From the NCBI GenBank assembly GCA_963841915.1, contig CAWJEN010000006.1:192001-256000 (forward strand): a stretch of DNA of 64,000 bases. Direction: 5' to 3'. The notes under the pieces are model-generated. The model was given only the letters and a program-made list of their open reading frames with translations. It was not told the origin of the DNA and ran no database searches. The stretch comes from an uncultured Planctomycetota bacterium (lineage in GTDB: Bacteria; Planctomycetota; Phycisphaerae; Tepidisphaerales; Tepidisphaeraceae). Every line of letters starts with the position of its first letter. Positions within the stretch are counted from its first letter, which is position 1. This document shows positions 1,825 to 26,742 of the stretch, piece by piece. The position numbers were made by a program, and so were the translations under genes.

Positions 1825-3900
1825 CTACTTCGCGGTGAGCAGCGAGCGGTTGTTGCGCTCTTCAACGAGGCGGGCGACGGCTTCGTCGAGGGTGACGACG
1901 CCGAGGTCGCCTGTGGTTCTGCCGCGGAGGCTGACGGTGCCGGCCTCGGCTTCCTTGCCGCCGCAGACGAGCATGTACGGAACCTTCCGCTCGGTCGCGA
2001 GGCGGATCTTGGAGCCGACCTTGTCGTTGCCGTCGTCGAGCGTCGCCCGCAGACCTGCCGCTTTGCACGCGTCGACGACTTTGTGCCCGTAGTCGTTGAA
2101 TTTCTCACTGATCGGCAGCACCCGTACCTGCTCGGGGGCCAGCCACAACGGGAAAGCGCCGGCAAAGTGTTCGATGAGGACGCCGACGAACCGCTCCATC
2201 GAGCCGAAGGGCGCGCGGTGGATCATGACCGGACGGTGGTCGGTGTTGTCGCTGCCGACGTAGCTGAGGTCGAACCGCTGGGGCAACTGGTAGTCGACCT
2301 GCACCGTACCGAGCTGCCACTCGCGGCCGATGACGTCTTTCACCACAAAGTCGATCTTCGGCCCATAGAAAGCGGCCTCGCCCGGCTCGGTCGTGAAGGC
2401 GACGCCGAGCGTTTTGGCGGCCTCCGTGCAGGCGGCTTCGGCCTGGTCCCATTGCTTGGCATCGCCGACGAACTTGTCGGCGTCAGGGTCACGCAGGCCG
2501 ACGCGTACGCGATAGTCGTTCATGCCGAGCGTGCCGAGGACGATCTTGACCAGTTCCAGGCAACCCAGCACTTCGGCAGCGACCTGTTCTTCGGTACAGA
2601 AGATGTGCGCGTCGTCCTGCGTGAAGCCGCGGACGCGGGTCATGCCGCCGAGCTCGCCGGATTGCTCCCAGCGGTAGACGGTGCCGAACTCTGCGAGTCT
2701 TACCGGAAGATCGCGATAACTGTGCGGGTCCGACGCGTAGATGCGGATGTGGTGCGGGCAGTTCATGGGCTTGAGCATGAAGCCCTCGATTTCGCCTTCT
2801 CCGAGCTTGTTGGCCAGTTCGCCGCAGGTGCAGCCTTCCTTGGCGAGCAGCTCGACCGTCTCTTTCTCGATCAGCGGCGGGAACTGGCTGTCGCTGTAGT
2901 ACGGGTAGTGGCCGCTGGTTCGGTAGAGGTCGAGCTTGCCGATGTGCGGCGTGAAAACCTGCTTGTAGCCCTGCCGTTGGAGGTGCTCTCCGATGAAGTT
3001 CTGCAGCTCTTGGCGGACGACCGCGCCGTTGGGCTTCCAGAGGACAAGGCCCTGGCCGACCTTGTCGTCGATCGTGTACAGACCGAGGGCGGGCCCGAGG
3101 ACACGGTGGTCGCGTTTTTTGGCTTCTGCAAGGGATTCTAGGTGTGCGTCGAGGTCGCCCTGGGTGTAGAAGGCCGTGCCGTAGATGCGTTGGAAGCGGT
3201 CGCTGGTGACATCGCCGTGCCAGTGGGAGCTGGCGGTGCTGGTGAGCTTGTACGCCCCGATGCGGCCGGTCGATGGAACGTGCGGGCCTTGGCAGAGGTC
3301 TTCCCAGTTCTGATCCTTTTGCCCGGTGACGTACCACGAGAGCGTCGTCGCCCCGCCTGCGATGGCCCGATCGGCGTTGTCGAGTTTGTACTTGTTTCCT
3401 TCAGTCTTCAGCCGCTCGACGCCAGCCTCGGTCGGCAGGTCGTACCGGGTAAACGGACGATCCTCGCCGACGACGGCTGCCATTTCCGCCTCGATCTTCT
3501 CGAAGTCGTCGGAGCTGATCGGCGGCTCGATCGCGATGTCGTAGTAAAAGCCGGTCTCCAGCGGTGGTCCGTAGGCGAGAACCGCGTCCGGTCGAACCTT
3601 TTGGATCGCCTCTGCCATCACGTGTGCCGTCGAGTGCCGGAGCAGGTAGAGGGCGTCTTTCTCATGCTGTTCGTCACGCCATTTGCTGCGATCCTTCTTG
3701 TCGACGCGCGGGCCGGTGACGAGGGCAACGTCGTGCTCGCCTTCGGGCAGCGGGCGATGGAGGTCGACGAGCACATGGTCGACGCGGGCACCGACGGCGG
3801 CGGCGGCGAGCTTCTCGCCGATGGTCACGGCCAGGTCGTAAGGCGTGCTGCCGTCGGGCAGGTCGCGGCGGGAACCATCGGGCAGGATCGCGGTGGGCAT
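1825..3900 (-). CDS. thrS: Threonine--tRNA ligase
   Basis: TGS domain, RHSTAH, DLCQGPH editing motif, KPMNCPHH, EAAFYGPK, HRAPFGSMERF; ATG at 3900. Confidence 0.97.
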   Translation of the reverse strand: MPTAILPDGSRRDLPDGSTPYDLAVTIGEKLAAAAVGARVDHVLVDLHRPLPEGEHDVALVTGPRVDKKDRSKWRDEQHEKDALYLLRHSTAHVMAEAIQKVRPDAVLAYGPPLETGFYYDIAIEPPISSDDFEKIEAEMAAVVGEDRPFTRYDLPTEAGVERLKTEGNKYKLDNADRAIAGGATTLSWYVTGQKDQNWEDLCQGPHVPSTGRIGAYKLTSTASSHWHGDVTSDRFQRIYGTAFYTQGDLDAHLESLAEAKKRDHRVLGPALGLYTIDDKVGQGLVLWKPNGAVVRQELQNFIGEHLQRQGYKQVFTPHIGKLDLYRTSGHYPYYSDSQFPPLIEKETVELLAKEGCTCGELANKLGEGEIEGFMLKPMNCPHHIRIYASDPHSYRDLPVRLAEFGTVYRWEQSGELGGMTRVRGFTQDDAHIFCTEEQVAAEVLGCLELVKIVLGTLGMNDYRVRVGLRDPDADKFVGDAKQWDQAEAACTEAAKTLGVAFTTEPGEAAFYGPKIDFVVKDVIGREWQLGTVQVDYQLPQRFDLSYVGSDNTDHRPVMIHRAPFGSMERFVGVLIEHFAGAFPLWLAPEQVRVLPISEKFNDYGHKVVDACKAAGLRATLDDGNDKVGSKIRLATERKVPYMLVCGGKEAEAGTVSLRGRTTGDLGVVTLDEAVARLVEERNNRSLLTAK

Positions 3901-3916
3901 GGTCGTTGGAAGGAGC

Positions 3917-3947
3917 AAACAAAAGCCGCCCGGTTGAGCGGGCGGCT
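3917..3947 (-). terminator. Intrinsic terminator (attenuator) just upstream of thrS
   Basis: Minus strand AGCCGCCCG-CTCAAC-CGGGCGGCT followed by TTTGTTT, ending about 16 nt before the thrS ATG. Confidence 0.8.
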
Positions 3948-3976
3948 GCGTCAGGGTGGACGAGAACCGGCCCGCG

Positions 3977-4024
3977 TTACAGCGGCGTGGTCGAAGTGGT
4001 CGCGGTCGTCGTCGTGAAGGTCAC
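3977..4024 (-). CDS. Threonine-rich leader peptide (MTFTTTTATTSTTPL)
   Basis: GTG ACC TTC ACG ACG ACG ACC GCG ACC ACT TCG ACC ACG CCG CTG TAA; 9 Thr in 15 codons; directly upstream of the thrS terminator; alternative ATG starts at 4042 and 4054. Confidence 0.8.
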   Translation of the reverse strand: MTFTTTTATTSTTPL

Positions 4025-4030
4025 GGCCCA

Positions 4031-4058
4031 ACCATAGATCATGCCGCCGCTCATGCAA
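4031..4058 (-). promoter_or_regulatory. Putative sigma70 promoter for the thrS leader
   Basis: TTGCAT-N16-TATGGT on the minus strand; the GTG start lies 6 nt after the -10 (leaderless geometry). Confidence 0.5.
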
Positions 4059-4415
4059 CCGCTCCTCCTGAGACCGGTCGCCGTGACGCTGGATCCGACA
4101 TTCGTCGTGGCCAACGTCATCGAGGCCGGGCTTTGGGTGGTCGTCGCGATCATCGTCCTGGCGAAGTGGAAGCACAAGACGGCAGCGATCGTGCTCGTCG
4201 CATTCGGCATCAGCGACCTCGTCGAGACACAGACGGGTGCGTGGTGGAAGCCGTGGTGGCTACTCGCCTGGAAGGCACTGTGCGTGATCGCGCTGCTGGT
4301 GATCGTCGGTTCCACGTGGAAGTCGTCGGTTCCACGTGGAACAGGCGACGTCAAGATTTGGATGAGGCGCACCAAAAGACCGGCGCCCTGGAGGAGGAGG
4401 GGACGCCGGCCTTAG
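4041..4415 (+). CDS. Small hypothetical membrane protein
   Basis: Hydrophobic segments and Trp-rich motif FGISDLVETQTGAWWKPWWLLAWK; 3' end overlaps two parS sites and the first hairpin of the array. Confidence 0.65.
   Translation: MPPLMQPLLLRPVAVTLDPTFVVANVIEAGLWVVVAIIVLAKWKHKTAAIVLVAFGISDLVETQTGAWWKPWWLLAWKALCVIALLVIVGSTWKSSVPRGTGDVKIWMRRTKRPAPWRRRGRRP
4308..4343. promoter_or_regulatory. Tandem parS-like sites
   Basis: GGTTCCACGTGGAAGT (4308-4323) and GGTTCCACGTGGAACA (4328-4343), within a 20-bp tandem duplication TCGTCGGTTCCACGTGGAA. Confidence 0.7.
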
Positions 4416-4921
4416 AGGAGGCTCGAAAACGGATGCCGGCCGGAGGAGGAGAAGCCGGCACCCGTGGAGGAGGATCAAAAGCCGACGCTGGAGGAGGAGG
4501 AGAACCAGCGTCGGCTGCGGAGGAGGTCTAAAACCGACGTCGAGGGAGGAGGAAACTCGACGCCGGTTGGAGGAGGCTCGAAACCCGGCACCGGGGGAGG
4601 AGGAAACCCGATGCCGGATGGAGGAGGTCCTGAGGGCTGGCCAGTTGGCCTAGTGGCATTGGCGTCCGCATCGCCAAGGCCCTGCCCGTGTTCTAAAAGC
4701 CGATGCGGGCGGAGGAGGAGAACCCGCACCGGCTGGAGGAGGTTTAAAACGGGCACCGGCCGGAGGAGGAGAAGCCGATGCCCGTGGAGGAGGTTTGTGT
4801 GGTCGCTGCGTTCTCCGACGCTGAAGGCCCTTTCGGGCTGGTGCGGGCTTCGCGACGGTCGCGTCAGCTCCGCTGTGTTCTAAAACCGGTGCCGGCCGAA
4901 GGTTGTCCTCCGGCACCGGTT
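4374..4921 (-). ncRNA. Putative structured ncRNA array: 8 hairpins with CCUCCUCC (anti-SD) loops and linkers
   Basis: ~52-nt period; stems differ in sequence but keep pairing; all six internal stem mismatches are A-C on + (G-U on -); a U-tract follows each stem on -. Confidence 0.75.
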
Positions 4922-4993
4922 GCGGGTCGGGCCCTCGCCCGGATTCCGCGTCTCTCCCTCGCCCCGAGGGTTGCATTTTCCCCCACGGATTCT

Positions 4994-5290
4994 CTAAGGC
5001 ATCCCGTCGTCATCTCGTTCATAGAACGAGGCGAAGAGGCCCGTGATCAGCACAGAACCGGCTGCGGCGACGCACATCAGTGGCGTCACGAGCCCGCCTT
5101 CCCGAACCAGCTCACCGTTCGCCAGCCACAGCAGGCCGGCAGCGACAAGAATGGCAACGAGTGGCAGCAGGAGCCGTCCGACGCGACGAACCAGGTGGTT
5201 CGCCTGGGCCACCCGCCAGTCGATGTAGTCGAGGGACGGGGACACGCGGTGAGTCGCAAGATCAGCGACATGCCGGAGGGCGTGGTTCAT
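4994..5290 (-). CDS. Small two-TM membrane protein upstream of the RNA array
   Basis: GGAGA RBS 5 nt before ATG (MNHALRH...); two hydrophobic stretches; alternative start at 5302. Confidence 0.55.
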   Translation of the reverse strand: MNHALRHVADLATHRVSPSLDYIDWRVAQANHLVRRVGRLLLPLVAILVAAGLLWLANGELVREGGLVTPLMCVAAAGSVLITGLFASFYERDDDGMP

Positions 5291-5937
5291 TGTGATCTCC
5301 ATCGCAATCGGCGGCCTTGCCTGCTGCGAAGAGGGGTTGAGTCGTTCTGAGCCGTCGCTTCTTGCGACGGGGTCGTGTCCGCCTCACCTGCCGACGGCAC
5401 CGTGCCGTCGTCTTGTGCAGGTTTGCGTCACGTTGAACCCTTTAGAGAAGTTCGTGCCACCCGACGCAGATCGAGGAAAAAAAACGCTGCGGGCGATGGG
5501 CAGGGAGCGTGAAAAGGCCGCTGATCGCTCGTATGGCTTGATTCGACGCTTCAAGTTTGTGACTTTATCTTCTGCGGCCTTTCGGACCTTCATCTACTGC
5601 TTACAGAACACTGCCTGCGGACTGGGCAATGTGGTGGGGAAGCGCGCAGTTGCATGCCAGTGCAGCGACGCCCGCCGCCGATGCCGCCAGACCTTTAAGT
5701 AAGACGTCGCGGAGTAGATGGCGACCCGAGGCTTATCGCTGCGTGTGCCATTCGCACCACAGGATGATTCGCGTCGTACGGTGCATTGACACGCGCAGGA
5801 AAAGTCTGCGCAATTCCAGTGGGACAGGCGGGTTCGTCCGCCTACACTGGCGGCCCGGCCGGTGGGTACGCGCTTGCGTCCCGCAACGGTTCGGTTCGGT
5901 TCGAAGGTACACGTGCGGCTCCGGCCGCGGGAGCGTT

Positions 5938-8900
5938 ATGGCTAAAGGTATTCGCGTCAGCTCACTGGCTAAGGAATTGGGAGTCAAGAGCAAGGACGTT
6001 CTGGCCAAGCTCCGCGAGGAGGGCTTGGGCGAGAAGGTGCCCAACCACCAGAGCACCGTCGGTCCGGGTTTGGAAGCCTCCATCCGCGATTGGTTCCCAG
6101 GAGCCGATGCAGGCGGTGGTGGAACTGCCACCGCCACCAAGACCACCAAGAAGGCCGTAAAGAAGACGACCAAGAAGGTCGCCAAGGCGGTGACCAAGAA
6201 TGCTCCCGCAGACGATGCGTCGGCTGCGCCCGCTGAGGAGGCTGAGACGTCTAAGGCCGCTCCACCGCCGCCTCCACCGCCTGCGGCACCGACGCCGCCG
6301 CCTGCGGCGCCGGTTGCACCTGCGGCGGTGGTTGCTGAGACGCCCCAAGCCGCCCCGCCTCCGCCGCCGCCCCGTCCGGCCCCGCCGGCCAACTCGCGTC
6401 CGACGCCGCCTGCGCCGCGTCCGCCCGTTGCTGCGCCTCAACCGCCGCTGCGTCCTGCTGCCACGATTTCGGGTCCGTCACCGTCGCTGGGTCGTCGCGA
6501 CCCCAAGACCGGCCGCCTGATCCCGCCGCCGGCACCGCCGGCGCCACCCAAGCCGCAGGCTCCGGTCGCGCCGCAGCGTCCTGCCGTGCGACCCGCCGCA
6601 CAAGCCCCGGGTCAGCCCGGTCGTCCGATGCCCCGGCCGGCCCCGCCGTCCGATGGTCGTCGCCCCGCCCCGCCGCAGCGTCCGGGTCAGCCCGGCCTGC
6701 CCGCCGGTGGCACCGTCAACCCCAACACGGGCGTTGCCGAGCAGCCGATGCGGCCGACGATTACGCTTGCCGATAAGCAAAAAGAGCTTCAAGAGCGGAT
6801 CAAGGTCGAGCGAGAAGCCAAACGCGCTGCCGAAGGTCCCGTCAAAGCCGCCCCACAGCTTTCGGAGCTGAAGAAGGCTGAGGTCAGCGGGCCCAAGGTC
6901 GTTCGCGTCGAAGCGCCCGACCACGTGCCTGCCCCACGTCGTCGCGACGCCTCGCGTCCGGGTGGACCGGCTCGCATTCCGACCGGACCCATCGCCAAAG
7001 GTGGTGGCGGCGTTAAGGTGCGTGACCCCAACGCAGCCGGCGCGCCAGGTACCGGAACCGGTGCCGCGGGTGATCGTGGCAGCCTGTCGGGTCGCCGTCG
7101 CACCGATGGTCGGCGTGGTGAGGCGCTTGAGAAGCTTCGCGAGTTCACCGACGCCGACATCATTGCTCGGCGCGATGCGCTCAATGCAGCCAAGGCCAAT
7201 CGGAACCTGCTGGATCGTCAGATGCAGCGGACCGCCCAGCGTGGTCGCGGTTTCCGCGCCCCCACGCCTTCGCAGTCGGACGGCCCGGTCATCGTCAAAG
7301 AGCCGATCACCGTCAAGAGCTTGTCGAACGATCTCGGCGTCCGCTCCAACTCGCTGCTTCGCACGCTGTTCGTCAAGCATGGCGCACGCGGCGTGAGCAT
7401 CAATAGCAGCCTCGATGCTGAACAGGCAGAGGCGTTGGCGATGGAGTTCGGGATCGACGTCGCTATCGAGCGTGAGCCGTCTGCCGAAGAGAAGCTCATC
7501 GAGCGGTTCATCGACATCGATGCCGCCATGGCCCCGGAGGATCTGACCTCCAGACCGCCCGTCGTGACCATCCTCGGCCACGTCGACCACGGCAAGACGA
7601 GCCTGCTGGACAAGATTCGCAACACCAATGTCGTCGCCGGCGAGAGTGGCGGCATCACGCAGCACGTTGCCGCCTTCGATGTCAGCATCGAGCGTGATGG
7701 CGAGACCAAGCAGGTCACATTTATCGACACGCCCGGCCACCAGGCCTTCACGGCCATGCGTGCCCGTGGTGCGCAGGTAACGGACATCGTCGTGCTGGTG
7801 ATCGATGCCGCCCAAGGCATTCAGCCGCAAACGACTGAGAGTATCAACCACGCCAAGGCCGCCGGCGTGCCGATCGTGGTCGCGCTCAACAAGATCGACC
7901 GTCCCGACGCCAATCCCGACAAGGTGCTTGGCGAACTAGCGGCTGCCGACCTGAACCCGGCCGAATGGGGTGGCGACACTGAAGTCGTCCGCACCAGTGC
8001 GATGACCGGCCAAGGGATCGACGATCTTCTGGAGATTCTCGACATTCAGGCCGAGATTCTCGAACTCCGGGCCGCGCCGCAGACGGCAGCCCGTGGCCGT
8101 GTGATCGAGGCGCGTCAAGCCCAGGGCCTTGGCCCGGTCGCGACAATCCTCGTGCAGCAAGGCACGCTCCGTGTCGGCGATGTCATTCTCGCCGGTGTCG
8201 GCTGGGGCCGCGTGCGTGCCCTGCAGAAGGCTGACGGCAAGAACCACAAGGAAGCCCCGCCCAGCACGCCCGTGCTCGTCAGCGGCTTCAATGAGGTTCC
8301 GTCGGCCGGTGACGCATTCTTCGTCATGAGCGACCTCGACGAAGCCGTCGCCGTCGCCGAAGAGCGTCGGTCGGAGCAGCGCCAGGAAGACCTTGCCCTC
8401 AAGAACAAGGTCAGTCTCGAGAACCTGTTCGACACCGTGGCCGAGGGCCAAATTAAGACGATCAACCTCATCCTCAAGGGCGACGTCAAGGGGTCGGTCG
8501 AGACGCTCCAAGCGACGGTCGGCCAGCACAACAACCAGGAAGTGCAGGTCAAGATCATCCACAGCGCTGTCGGTGCTGTGAATGAGAGTGATGTGGAGCT
8601 CGCCGACGCATCGGAGGCCGTCGTCATCGGCTTCCACGTCGCCATCGATGAGGGTGCCCGCCACCTCGCCGAGCAGCGTGGCGTCGAGATCCGGACGTAC
8701 AACGTCATCTACGAGATCTACGACGACATCAAGCTGGCCTTGAGCGGCCTGCTCACGCCCGACATCGAAGAGCGGTACCGTGGCACCTGCGAGGTGCGGC
8801 AGACGTTCCGCTCGAGCCGTCTGGGCACGATTGCCGGTTGCTACGTCACCGATGGCACGATCAGTCGCGATGCGTTCGTCCGCCTGCTGCGGGACGGCCG

Positions 8901-12736: not shown

Positions 12737-14035
12737 ATGCGGACACTTGCGATCATCAACCAAAAGGGCGGCTGCGGTAAGACCACCGTCGCCATCAATC
12801 TCGCCGCATGTCTCGCCAAGTTGGGCCACAAGACACTGCTCGTCGACATGGACCCCCAGGGGCACTGTGCAACGGGCCTTGCTGTTCCCGATGACCAGAT
12901 CGAGCGGACCGTGCTCGACGCCCTGCTCGAAACCGGCGACCTCGGCTCAACCGGCCCTGTCTCAATCAAGGACATGGTCTGGCAGATCGCAAGCGGCTTC
13001 GACCTGGCTCCGAGCGACCTGAAGCTCGCTGGCTTCGAGCAGCTCTTCGCCGGTAGATCGGGTCGCGAGAAGCGCCTCGAGTCAGCCTTGGCCGAAGTGG
13101 CAGACGGTTACGAGTGGTGCATCCTCGACTGCCCACCCGGTGTCGGCCTGCTGACCTTCAACGCGCTTGTCGCCTGCGACGAAGCGATTGTGCCGGTCGA
13201 GACAGGTTACTTCAGCCTGCACGGTCTGGCCCGCATGGTCGAGACGCTTGAAGAGCTCAAAGAACAAGCAGGCAAGACGACGAACATTCGCGTCCTGCCG
13301 ACGCTGTACGACACGCGGACCAAGCTCGCTCGCGAAGTACTGGCCGAGCTGCGTGGCCGGTTCAGCGACGTGCTCATGCGGTCGTGCGTGAACTTCAACT
13401 CAAAGCTCAAAGAGGCCGCCAGCTTCGGGCAGCCGATCACCGAGTACGACCCCGGCAGCCGTGGGTACAAAGATTTTGTCGATCTGGCCCGCGAGTTGAT
13501 GGGTCAACCGGAAGTGGCCGTTGTCCCCGGTGCCACGGACGGCCCACTGAGCCGTCCGGCCGAGCTGGTACACCGCGCCCGGCAGCTCGCTCAATTTTCG
13601 GCCAAGAGCTTCGGCCGCGAGGCCAAGCGGGTGCCGGCCGTCGAGGCCGAAGCCACGCCGCCCGCATCCACGCCGGGCTTCACGTTCGGCACCCGTCAGA
13701 ACGGTCAGTACGTCGACTGCATTGTCAGCTTCCCGGGTGCTCGAAGCGTGCAGGTCGCTGGCGACTTCAACGACTGGAACCCGTCGACCGGTCGCCTGAC
13801 GAAGCTCGACGCCGACGGTGACGCCTGGCATTGCCGCCTGCCGGCCAAGGGTGGCCGACACCGTTACCGCTACGTCGTCGACGGCGAATGGCTTAATGAC
13901 CCGCACGGCGGTGAGATCGAGCGCAACGAGTTCGGCGAGTACAACAACATTCTCATCGTCAAGCACGCCCAGCCGCAGCCGAGTCAGGCACGGCCGGCCA
14001 CCTCGCAACCCGCCCGCCAAGCCGTCGCGGCCTGA
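12737..14035 (+). CDS. ParA/Soj-family ATPase fused to a C-terminal CBM48 (AMPK-beta-type glycogen-binding) domain
   Basis: NQKGGCGKTT deviant Walker A, DMDPQG, LDCPP; C-terminal VAGDFNDW...YRYVVDGEW..DP...NEFGEYNN. Confidence 0.88.
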   Translation: MRTLAIINQKGGCGKTTVAINLAACLAKLGHKTLLVDMDPQGHCATGLAVPDDQIERTVLDALLETGDLGSTGPVSIKDMVWQIASGFDLAPSDLKLAGFEQLFAGRSGREKRLESALAEVADGYEWCILDCPPGVGLLTFNALVACDEAIVPVETGYFSLHGLARMVETLEELKEQAGKTTNIRVLPTLYDTRTKLAREVLAELRGRFSDVLMRSCVNFNSKLKEAASFGQPITEYDPGSRGYKDFVDLARELMGQPEVAVVPGATDGPLSRPAELVHRARQLAQFSAKSFGREAKRVPAVEAEATPPASTPGFTFGTRQNGQYVDCIVSFPGARSVQVAGDFNDWNPSTGRLTKLDADGDAWHCRLPAKGGRHRYRYVVDGEWLNDPHGGEIERNEFGEYNNILIVKHAQPQPSQARPATSQPARQAVAA

Positions 14036-25572: not shown

Positions 25573-26622
25573 ATGCAACTAAACCTAACCGTCGCCACCA
25601 CCACGATCGCCGCCCTCGCTCTTGCCGCCAGCGCGACGAGTGCTCAGCTTACGTTCAACGACGACTTCACCGCCGGCGCGACGCTGGCCGACAACTACAC
25701 CTACTTCGTCCTCGACAACGACTTCGCCACTGCCGGCAATCAGAACCTGCCAGGCGGCGGGACGAACACGCTCTCGGAGACCGGCGGCGCGTTCAACCTC
25801 ACCGCGTCCGGCGTTGACCTCACGAGCAGCTCCGGCGGCGCCTTTAACTTCACCCGCCTGACCCGCAGCGAAAGTCCTGACTCGGCCTTTGACCTCACGC
25901 AGCCTTCGTCGCTGACCATCGACGTCGCCAACCTTGACAACCTCTTCTTCGACGCCATCCAGCGGCCCGTCGTCTTTGGATTCGGCGACACCGTCCCGGC
26001 CATCAATGTTCAGGTTCAGGCCCGCTTCAACGGCGGCATGGTTCAGTCGATCATCGACGTCCTCGACAGCGACGGCAACATGCTCGCGCCGCGCACGACG
26101 ACCGTGCTCAACCCCAACAACAACCTGCTCACGCTCAATCTCGATGACGACAGCTTCAGCGTCGACTTCGGCACTGCCACCGTCATCGGCGACACGCTTC
26201 ACAACCTCACTTTTGACTCGGCCAACGACGGCAAGCCTTTCTTCGAAGCCCGCACCGTCTTTGGCGGCGACACGGCTAACTTCCTCGTCCAAAGCTTCTC
26301 CGGCAGCGGCTTTGCCGTCATCGACGACATGCGCCTGCCCGGCGACGCTAACGGTGACGGCACCGTCTCCATCCTCGACTTCGCCATCCTGCGGGCCAAC
26401 TTCGGCAGCAACATGGGCACCTTCGAGACCGGCGACTTCAACGAAGACGGCCTTGTTTCCATCCTCGACTTCGCCATCCTTCGCGCCAACTTCGGCACGA
26501 GCCTGACGCCGGCACAACTGGCAACGGTCGACGCCTGGTACGCCAGCGTGGTCCCCGAGCCGACGACCGCCGCCCTGTTCGCCCTTGGCGGACTGGCGAT
26601 GCTGCGTCGTCGCCGCGCTTGA
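25573..26622 (+). CDS. Secreted PEP-CTERM protein with dockerin-like domain
   Basis: GGAGG RBS, signal peptide, duplicated SILDFAILRANFG, VPEPTT...LRRRRA. Confidence 0.85.
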   Translation: MQLNLTVATTTIAALALAASATSAQLTFNDDFTAGATLADNYTYFVLDNDFATAGNQNLPGGGTNTLSETGGAFNLTASGVDLTSSSGGAFNFTRLTRSESPDSAFDLTQPSSLTIDVANLDNLFFDAIQRPVVFGFGDTVPAINVQVQARFNGGMVQSIIDVLDSDGNMLAPRTTTVLNPNNNLLTLNLDDDSFSVDFGTATVIGDTLHNLTFDSANDGKPFFEARTVFGGDTANFLVQSFSGSGFAVIDDMRLPGDANGDGTVSILDFAILRANFGSNMGTFETGDFNEDGLVSILDFAILRANFGTSLTPAQLATVDAWYASVVPEPTTAALFALGGLAMLRRRRA

Positions 26623-26742
26623 GCAAGACGATGCCGTCTTGAGAGAACTTAATCGGCTATACGGCCTACCGCTCTGCCTCCTCCCGCCCCGCCGCAGGCT
26701 CATCGTCTGCGGCGGGGCGTTCTTCTGCGTGGCGGGCGACGG

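Follow-up and report, generated by a model that had tools for sequence, protein, structure and literature searches.

The window, the whole 64,000-nt stretch analyzed here, comes from the 3.63-Mb genome of an uncultured planctomycete of the family Tepidisphaeraceae (G000) and contains, on the minus strand between 4374 and 4793, seven tandem modules. Each consists of a single-stranded CCUCCUCC seed, a hairpin (stem of 12-13 bp, loop of 11-13 nt on the minus strand) that carries CCUCCUCC a second time in its loop, and a run of U3-4. Following the minus strand, module 1 (4746-4793; seed 4786-4793, loop motif 4762-4769, U4) and module 2 (4695-4742; seed 4735-4742, loop motif 4711-4718, U4) are separated by a structured spacer without motif (4628-4694) from module 3 (4581-4627; seed 4620-4627, loop motif 4596-4603, U3), which is followed by module 4 (4530-4576; seed 4569-4576, loop motif 4545-4552), module 5 (4477-4526; loop motif 4490-4500), whose seed at 4519-4526, CCUCCUCCGC, has the family consensus form, and module 6 (4426-4473; seed 4466-4473, loop motif 4442-4449). 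Module 7 (4374-4421; seed CCUCCUCU at 4414-4421, loop motif 4390-4400) is the last and presumably the final terminator, its counterparts in the related genomes G001, G003 and G004 ending in U5. Ahead of module 1 lies a plain hairpin of 14 bp followed by U4 (4882-4921, minus strand), with the loop GGACAACCUUC and no anti-Shine-Dalgarno (anti-SD) motif.

The original prediction, which had drawn attention to this locus, described eight motif-bearing units with 14 anti-SD motifs. The eight A-tracts by which it delimited the units on the plus strand are present at the positions it gave, the one at 4581 comprising three A, and the stems that it quoted are correct; seven units carry motifs, while the eighth is the plain hairpin at 4882-4921. 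The total of 14 motifs holds as well, except that 13 are exact copies of CCUCCUCC and one, at 4414-4421, is CCUCCUCU. Matches to GGAGGAGG number 19 in the window, against a chance expectation of 2.4 +/- 1.4 (none of 100 shuffles reached 19), and 15 of them fall inside the array, where they form 13 separate sites (4390-4793) that are joined by one AGAGGAGG. The array is the sole GGAGGAGG cluster of this kind in the genome. Given that the 16S rRNA tail of the same genome is GAUCACCUCCUUUCU, the array motif corresponds to the anti-SD extended by one CCU, which bears out the anti-SD identity first assigned to it.

Upstream of the array, at 5444-5459 on the minus strand, lies a sigma-54-type promoter sequence, TGGCACGAACTTCTCT, which keeps the GG of the -24 element and has TC for GC at -12; its predicted start is near 5432. 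It is followed by a small ORF of 102 aa (4994-5302, minus strand) encoding a putative membrane protein with two hydrophobic helices, so that by position the array is the 3′ UTR of this ORF. The protein has no Pfam or NCBIfam family and no atlas match at 0.9 or above. Between the ORF and the plain hairpin, a leader motif, CGGGGCGAGGG(n)GAGA (4951-4966, minus strand), is conserved in G000, G001, G003 and G004 and occurs as a variant in G053. On the other side, a convergent ORF for a small membrane protein (4041-4415, plus strand) adjoins thrS and overlaps module 7 with its 3′ end. The order of promoter, 102-aa ORF, leader, plain hairpin, modules and convergent gene is kept in G001, G003, G004 and G053. 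Upstream of thrS, on the minus strand at 3924-4054, we also observed a Thr-rich leader peptide ending FTTTTATTSTTPL and a terminator (3947-3924), by appearance a ribosome-mediated attenuator; poly-Thr leaders of a like kind precede thrS in many relatives.

The convergent ORF terminates in another frame than its homologues do; these cross module 7 as K-T/A-G-A-x-E-E-E. Two parS-like palindromes are found just before the frame shift (4309-4345). The palindrome, TTCCACGTGGAA, matches the parS consensus. It has 155 copies genome-wide (134 in a longer form), scattered over four-fifths of the contigs and along the full length of the two large ones, and most copies are paired at a spacing of about 70 nt; the sites in the window are at 1633, 1706, 4310, 4330, 55846, 55921 and 57367. 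parS sites are usually few and origin-proximal, far below 155. A ParA-like ORF lies at 12737-14035.

Stem pairs were counted with a strand-neutral score, in which G-U and A-C were treated alike, for 54 modules from 24 loci in the window's genome and its relatives. The results show 620 Watson-Crick pairs, 23 G-U, no A-C and no other pair on the CCUCC strand, a count to which related modules contribute, so that the 54 modules do not represent 54 independent cases. Among 45 distinct hairpins, each of the first 10 stem positions is occupied by several pair types. In the window array, read on the minus strand, internal G-U pairs occur in six of the seven stems and A-C pairs in none; the original prediction had reported the six stems correctly but allowed a single mismatch in each, whereas two stems have two, giving eight G-U pairs in total. 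The folding z-score is -10.2 on the minus and -4.3 on the plus strand, the mean computed accessibility of the motif on the minus strand is 0.88, and many single modules end in U5-8. The G-U asymmetry of 23:0, the U-tracts and the side on which the promoter lies support an RNA that would be made from the minus strand, as was first proposed.

A promoter-like element is a recurrent feature of these loci. The pattern TGGCAY-N5-T-Y-K-Y, which fits the sigma-54 consensus in its -24 part and more loosely in its -12 part, is found at 23 of 28 loci, within 720 nt upstream and on the same strand, compared with a chance rate of 0.011 per 720-nt window, the pattern having been loosened only after these loci had been seen; on the antisense side it occurs at 0 of 28 (five windows being shorter). 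Its -12 element reads TCTC in the window's genus and in G053, and TCGC, TCGT, TTGC, TTGT or TTTC elsewhere. From the element to the first module the distance is 598-687 nt in G001, G003, G004 and G053 and 91 nt in G060, where transposase-like ORFs, recognized by eye, were seen just upstream of the promoter of the three-module RNA (L042, about 5900-6900). The genome of the window contains rpoN; it shows no genome-wide enrichment of the sigma-54 motif, and no sigma-70-type site was found at 3800-6000 of the window. A second TGGCAC-N5-TCTCT, near-identical to the array promoter, was noticed on the minus strand of contig C6 of G000, 169 nt before a gene that by eye looks like Sua5/TsaC. As for the 102-aa protein, it is matched in 33 of 141 family genomes. 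At the best 30 loci of its gene, modules follow the gene in 14 and are absent in 16, indicating that gene and module are separable; many of the module-free loci run straight into the thrS leader.

A lack of similar arrays in relatives had been named as evidence against the original prediction. Such arrays exist: the module is present in at least 24 of 141 Tepidisphaeraceae genomes, a lower bound pooled from patterns, a rough covariance model and the upstream-protein search. Eight of these genomes have arrays of three to eight modules (seven in G000, five in G001, G003 and G123, eight in G004, six in G053, three in G060 and G113), and 16 have a single module (G019, G041-G045, G057, G061, G085, G091, G095, G106, G110, G116, G130 and G155). 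Patterns and folding were preferred over the covariance model, R1, which kept 8 pairs and scored 40 candidates per genome; its 38 of 141 therefore includes chance matches and misses members. The genome G006 enters denominators only (5 of the 4166 prepilin matches mentioned below), and no positive claim rests on it. A DNA search detected the array in three of four congeners; 36 further relatives gave no match. In the class outside the family, 1 of 337 genomes matched, by a Glu-rich false match, and an earlier, stricter pattern had given 5 of 337, none module-like by eye. A loose pattern found at least 119 stretches in viral contigs, none folding into a module, and at least 119 in a genome collection, where, among the matches listed, multi-module hairpin arrays with U-tracts occurred only in Tepidisphaeraceae loci; the remaining matches of that collection were set aside as Glu/Ala/Arg coding repeats by their look. 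A metagenome scan yielded 14 stretches, of which 0 passed as a module. The named records with such arrays (L273, L242) are Tepidisphaeraceae/Tepidisphaerales metagenome-assembled genomes, in line with the non-proteobacterial lineage proposed from the start.

The single-module forms look like ordinary sRNA ends, with a seed and a terminator. Stand-alone forms, with the promoter-like site 91-132 nt before the seed, are found in G019 (twice), G061, G085, G110 and G060. A quick IF2 tree, covering 70 of the 141 genomes, groups seven of the eight array genomes in one clade (SH-aLRT 93) and places G113 elsewhere, a pattern that takes two changes or more. On this comparative evidence, the simplest history seems to be the tandem duplication of a sigma-54 sRNA end found across the family, in which a seed precedes a terminator whose loop holds a second motif.

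Related arrangements were seen at other places. At L389, L390, L391 and L395 (G041, G045, G057 and G130), a sigma-54-type site, a conserved GCGCGGUUGGUUCCC stretch, a long hairpin and one module follow each other; this RNA gene of about 250-300 nt has another conserved 5′ domain, and the two loci scanned gave no Rfam match. A version of the module with one seed stands in the window at 26622-26730 on the plus strand, where CCUCCUCC and a terminator hairpin come after a PEP-CTERM gene. On contig C6 of G000 (about 919200-919400, plus strand), a gene that by eye resembles glutamine synthetase has CUCCUU and CUCUCCCCUC in its 3′ UTR before the terminator, which makes this UTR a candidate 3′-UTR sRNA; the opposite strand carries a GGGGCGAGGG motif as in the array leader.

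Nothing in the array reached the gathering threshold of Rfam, so that the membership in cuckoo/CcsR or CsrB/Rsm families raised at the outset was not borne out. The best sub-threshold matches, all on the minus strand, are ar14 (RF02344/RF02791, cuckoo set; 35.2 vs 58.8 bits), CcsR1 (21.3 vs 65.3) and LhrC (22.3 vs 110), and they agree with the cuckoo-like character suggested earlier; in five relatives' loci, only tRNAs matched at gathering. The array would work like the cuckoo RNAs (CcsR1-4 of Rhodobacter sphaeroides, ar14/NfeR1 of Sinorhizobium meliloti; RF02791, RF02344) without being a member. The cuckoo definition, as given in a genome survey, requires adjacent hairpins at most 10 unpaired nt apart with one motif per hairpin (PMC4615179), whereas the array linkers are at least 12 nt long and each hairpin is accompanied by a U-tract and by a further motif in the unpaired linker. 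All seven array loops carry CCUCCUCC on variable stems, and the array motif is CCUCCUCC(G/U/A); the cuckoo loop motif, as the exact 9-mer CCUCCUCCC, occurs in 2 of 14. Unlike the cuckoo RNAs, which use RpoH/sigma-70 promoters and belong to alphaproteobacteria, the array has a putative sigma-54-type promoter and a planctomycete host, and its upstream gene encodes a two-helix membrane protein rather than DUF1127 (PF06568, neighbor of the cuckoo CIN1 subgroup), for which G000 (94% complete) gave no match. The same survey reports cuckoo RNAs only in Alphaproteobacteria among 2,689 genomes and treats similar C-rich RNAs elsewhere as analogues (PMC4615179).

LhrC1-5 of Listeria monocytogenes (RF00616) resemble one module: these multicopy RNAs bind SDs through redundant C-rich motifs, placed both in a single-stranded stretch and in the loop of the terminator, and they do not need Hfq for regulation (PMC4132741). 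They differ in their UCCC motif, their near-identical copies of 111-114 nt, their induction by LisRK and their occurrence in Firmicutes (PMC4132741), whereas the array modules are about 52 nt long, have divergent stems and share one promoter. The Vibrio Qrr1-5 are likewise redundant translation-repressing sRNAs under sigma-54 control, yet they are separate genes and form no anti-SD array. Qrr RNAs use a target-specific seed and depend on Hfq. In the literature covered, which includes few subscription journals, no paper linked planctomycetes, small RNA and anti-Shine-Dalgarno, or Phycisphaerae and sRNA, and among ten papers listed on sigma-54 sRNAs none names Tepidisphaera. The element thus apparently represents an uncatalogued family without Rfam entry, and calling it a new ncRNA system is fair at the family level; its mechanism class, the multivalent anti-SD sRNA, is already known.

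Strand, structure, conservation, a promoter-like site and complementarity to GGAGG-type SDs are established at the level of comparative sequence, and from these we consider it probable, though by no means certain, that the array is a source of multivalent anti-SD sRNAs, which as a whole transcript or as released modules would base-pair in trans with G-rich SDs and prevent initiation. In this model, the promoter at 5444-5459 would drive a minus-strand transcript of about 1,060 nt, in which the ORF for the small membrane protein is followed by a long 3′ UTR with the seven modules, when a sigma-54 activator fires. Leaky termination at the U3-4 runs, cleavage by RNase E/G in the U/A-rich linkers, or both, could then generate nested or approximately 52-nt seed-hairpin RNAs, the genome having an RNase E/G gene. 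The 14 exposed CCUCCUC motifs would pair with mRNA SDs and prevent 30S loading without Hfq, which was not found in the genome. Precedents are NfeR1, whose redundant anti-SD seeds occlude the ntrB ribosome-binding site independently of Hfq (PMC10746234), CcsR1-4, which RNase E cuts out of the 3′ UTR belonging to the small-protein gene ccaF1 (PMC8034643), and the motif placement of LhrC (PMC4132741). As a tandem amplification of a single-module sRNA present across the family, the array would raise the seed dose per transcript.

The modules might instead act in cis, as stacked terminators or stabilizers of the membrane-protein mRNA whose C-rich motifs shield what lies downstream, such as the thrS attenuator, from read-through or mask a downstream SD. 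Every module does have the form of a terminator, and a C-rich stretch (CCTCCT or CTCCTCC at most 90 nt past the stop codon) is found in 8 of 98 PEP-CTERM genes compared with 73 of 3005 genes (p=0.004). In G110, at L480 (C114:3104-3251), a PEP-CTERM gene is followed by a seed and hairpin and, 34 nt on, by a prepilin-type gene with a GAGGAGG SD, a possible case of cis control, and CT-rich insulation of a downstream ribosome-binding site has been reported for sigma-54 promoters in a preprint (bioRxiv 10.1101/086108). Termination, however, requires conservation of neither the loop motif nor the seed; genes made of promoter and module exist on their own, with no conserved upstream ORF, G060 having three modules 91 nt behind the promoter; and thrS, the next gene on the same strand, starts about 470 nt away with no GGAGG before its ATG. 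We regard a purely local role as unlikely.

A protein sponge or scaffold, in which the 14 single-stranded C/U motifs would titrate a C-rich-RNA-binding protein (e.g., Rho or a KH/S1-type protein), appears improbable as well. Rho prefers YC. The regular multivalent display, with an invariant motif on freely varying stems, and the absence of added pairing by the flanks are what such a sponge would lead one to expect, but the motif is exactly the SD complement plus one CCU, the commoner form is a single-module gene with just two motifs, and no gene for a candidate protein is linked to the loci.

It is very improbable that a plus-strand RNA of the CsrB/RsmZ type, with GGA in loops and linkers, or a 30S decoy is encoded here: the plus strand has 39 GGA in 427 nt and the genome two CsrA homologues, yet CANGGANG, the CsrA-type consensus, occurs 0 times and ANGGA three times, all 23 non-Watson-Crick pairs would become A-C, the U-tracts would turn into 5′ A-tracts, the promoter-like site is missing on that side, and no Csr/Rsm family appears among Rfam matches to E=10, so the low rank that the original prediction gave this option was justified. 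A DNA-level repeat (REP/BIME-, attC- or CRISPR-like) or a low-complexity coding repeat is just as hard to sustain, despite tandem units of near-constant period in one to eight copies, since there is one locus in the genome and no dispersal, the variable part is the self-complementary stem and no CRISPR family is among the Rfam matches, no reading frame is kept through units 51-59 nt long, the ORFs that overlap the array vary from one relative to another, Pfam gives no match for the plus-strand ORF 4464-4883, and promoter and terminator logic suits an RNA; the original exclusion of CRISPR is supported, as is a noncoding nature.

If the array does give rise to trans-acting anti-SD RNAs, the repressed set would be small, because few genes in the host have any SD. 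Among 3103 genes from our own rough gene calling, in which gene starts depend on the caller, an SD peak at -13 to -8 is seen in a minority; GGAG or GAGG lies at -17 to -4 in 377, compared with 196 in a control window. A low SD fraction has been noted for Planctomycetes (PMC5397173). With one rule applied to all genes, GAGGAGG precedes ATG in 24 genes, of which 10 belong to the 40 prepilin-type genes and 14 to the 3063 others (p=6.5e-14); the perfect 16S match, AAGGAGG, is found in 1 of the 40. The prepilin-type genes with a GAGGAGG SD share CC(U/C)GAGGAGG in UTRs that are otherwise 30% alike. Among the 20 proteins scanned were eight prepilins with this SD, all of which match N_methyl, four of them also DUF1559 below the cut-off; products of other GAGGAGG-SD genes have glycan-binding or sortilin-like domains or are regulators. 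Calculated duplexes with the seeds (-15.9 to -22.1 kcal/mol) are more stable than those with the 16S tail (-11.5 to -14.1 kcal/mol) at nine of nine sites, an advantage favored by taking the best of several seeds. The CCU/CCC extension conserved in the targets is unpaired with the CCUCCUCC of G000, leaving a 7-bp core, and CCUCCUCAG is confined to the modules of some relatives. The idea that variable seed flanks match different targets was rejected, the pairing extension being at chance (44 vs 43.8).

Across the family, prepilin-type genes are present in 141 of 141 genomes (4166 motif matches). A GAGGAGG SD precedes 29 of 232 (12.5%) in array genomes, or 20 of 199 without G000, compared with 6 of 485 where the genome has a single module and 21 of 3449 (0.6%) in the remainder then classed as module-free; moving G019, G061 and G085, later found to have single modules, changes the last two shares, counted by hand, to 8 of 552 and 19 of 3382, and the numerator pattern throughout sees only leaders of about 5-15 residues. 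As seven of the eight array genomes belong to one IF2 clade, this co-occurrence of SD and array is close to one event. In G113, the separate array, 0 of 15 prepilin-type genes have the GAGGAGG SD, and the SD is present where no array was found in G002 (same genus, 89% complete; 2 of 16) and in G046 (4 of 42). The genome-wide density of CYGAGGAGG-ATG is mixed, being high also in genomes in which no array was found. GAGGAGG can also be read simply as a strong SD, and prepilin-type genes as a target class are for now a lead from sequence rather than a result.

Taken together, these observations suggest that the array RNA probably dampens translation of selected mRNAs, possibly including those of pilin-like surface proteins; the leading candidates for repression would be prepilin-type (N_methyl, DUF1559-like) and some secreted glycan-active proteins with a C(U/C)GAGGAGG SD. 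In this family-wide sRNA, the stages between one module at a terminator end and an array of eight can be seen; next to cuckoo and LhrC, it offers what looks like an independent third way to multivalent anti-SD RNAs, and it yields a concrete prediction on which mRNAs are repressed. We put forward, tentatively and with more doubt than conviction, that C(U/C)GAGGAGG may serve as a shared address of paralogous prepilin-type/DUF1559-like and secreted-protein mRNAs, through which a sigma-54-driven RNA of one to eight modules in the same clade would switch the family off together. If true, this would be an instance in which the dose of an sRNA grows as its target set becomes larger, and a first handle would be gained on the regulation of the large family of pilin-like genes in planctomycetes.
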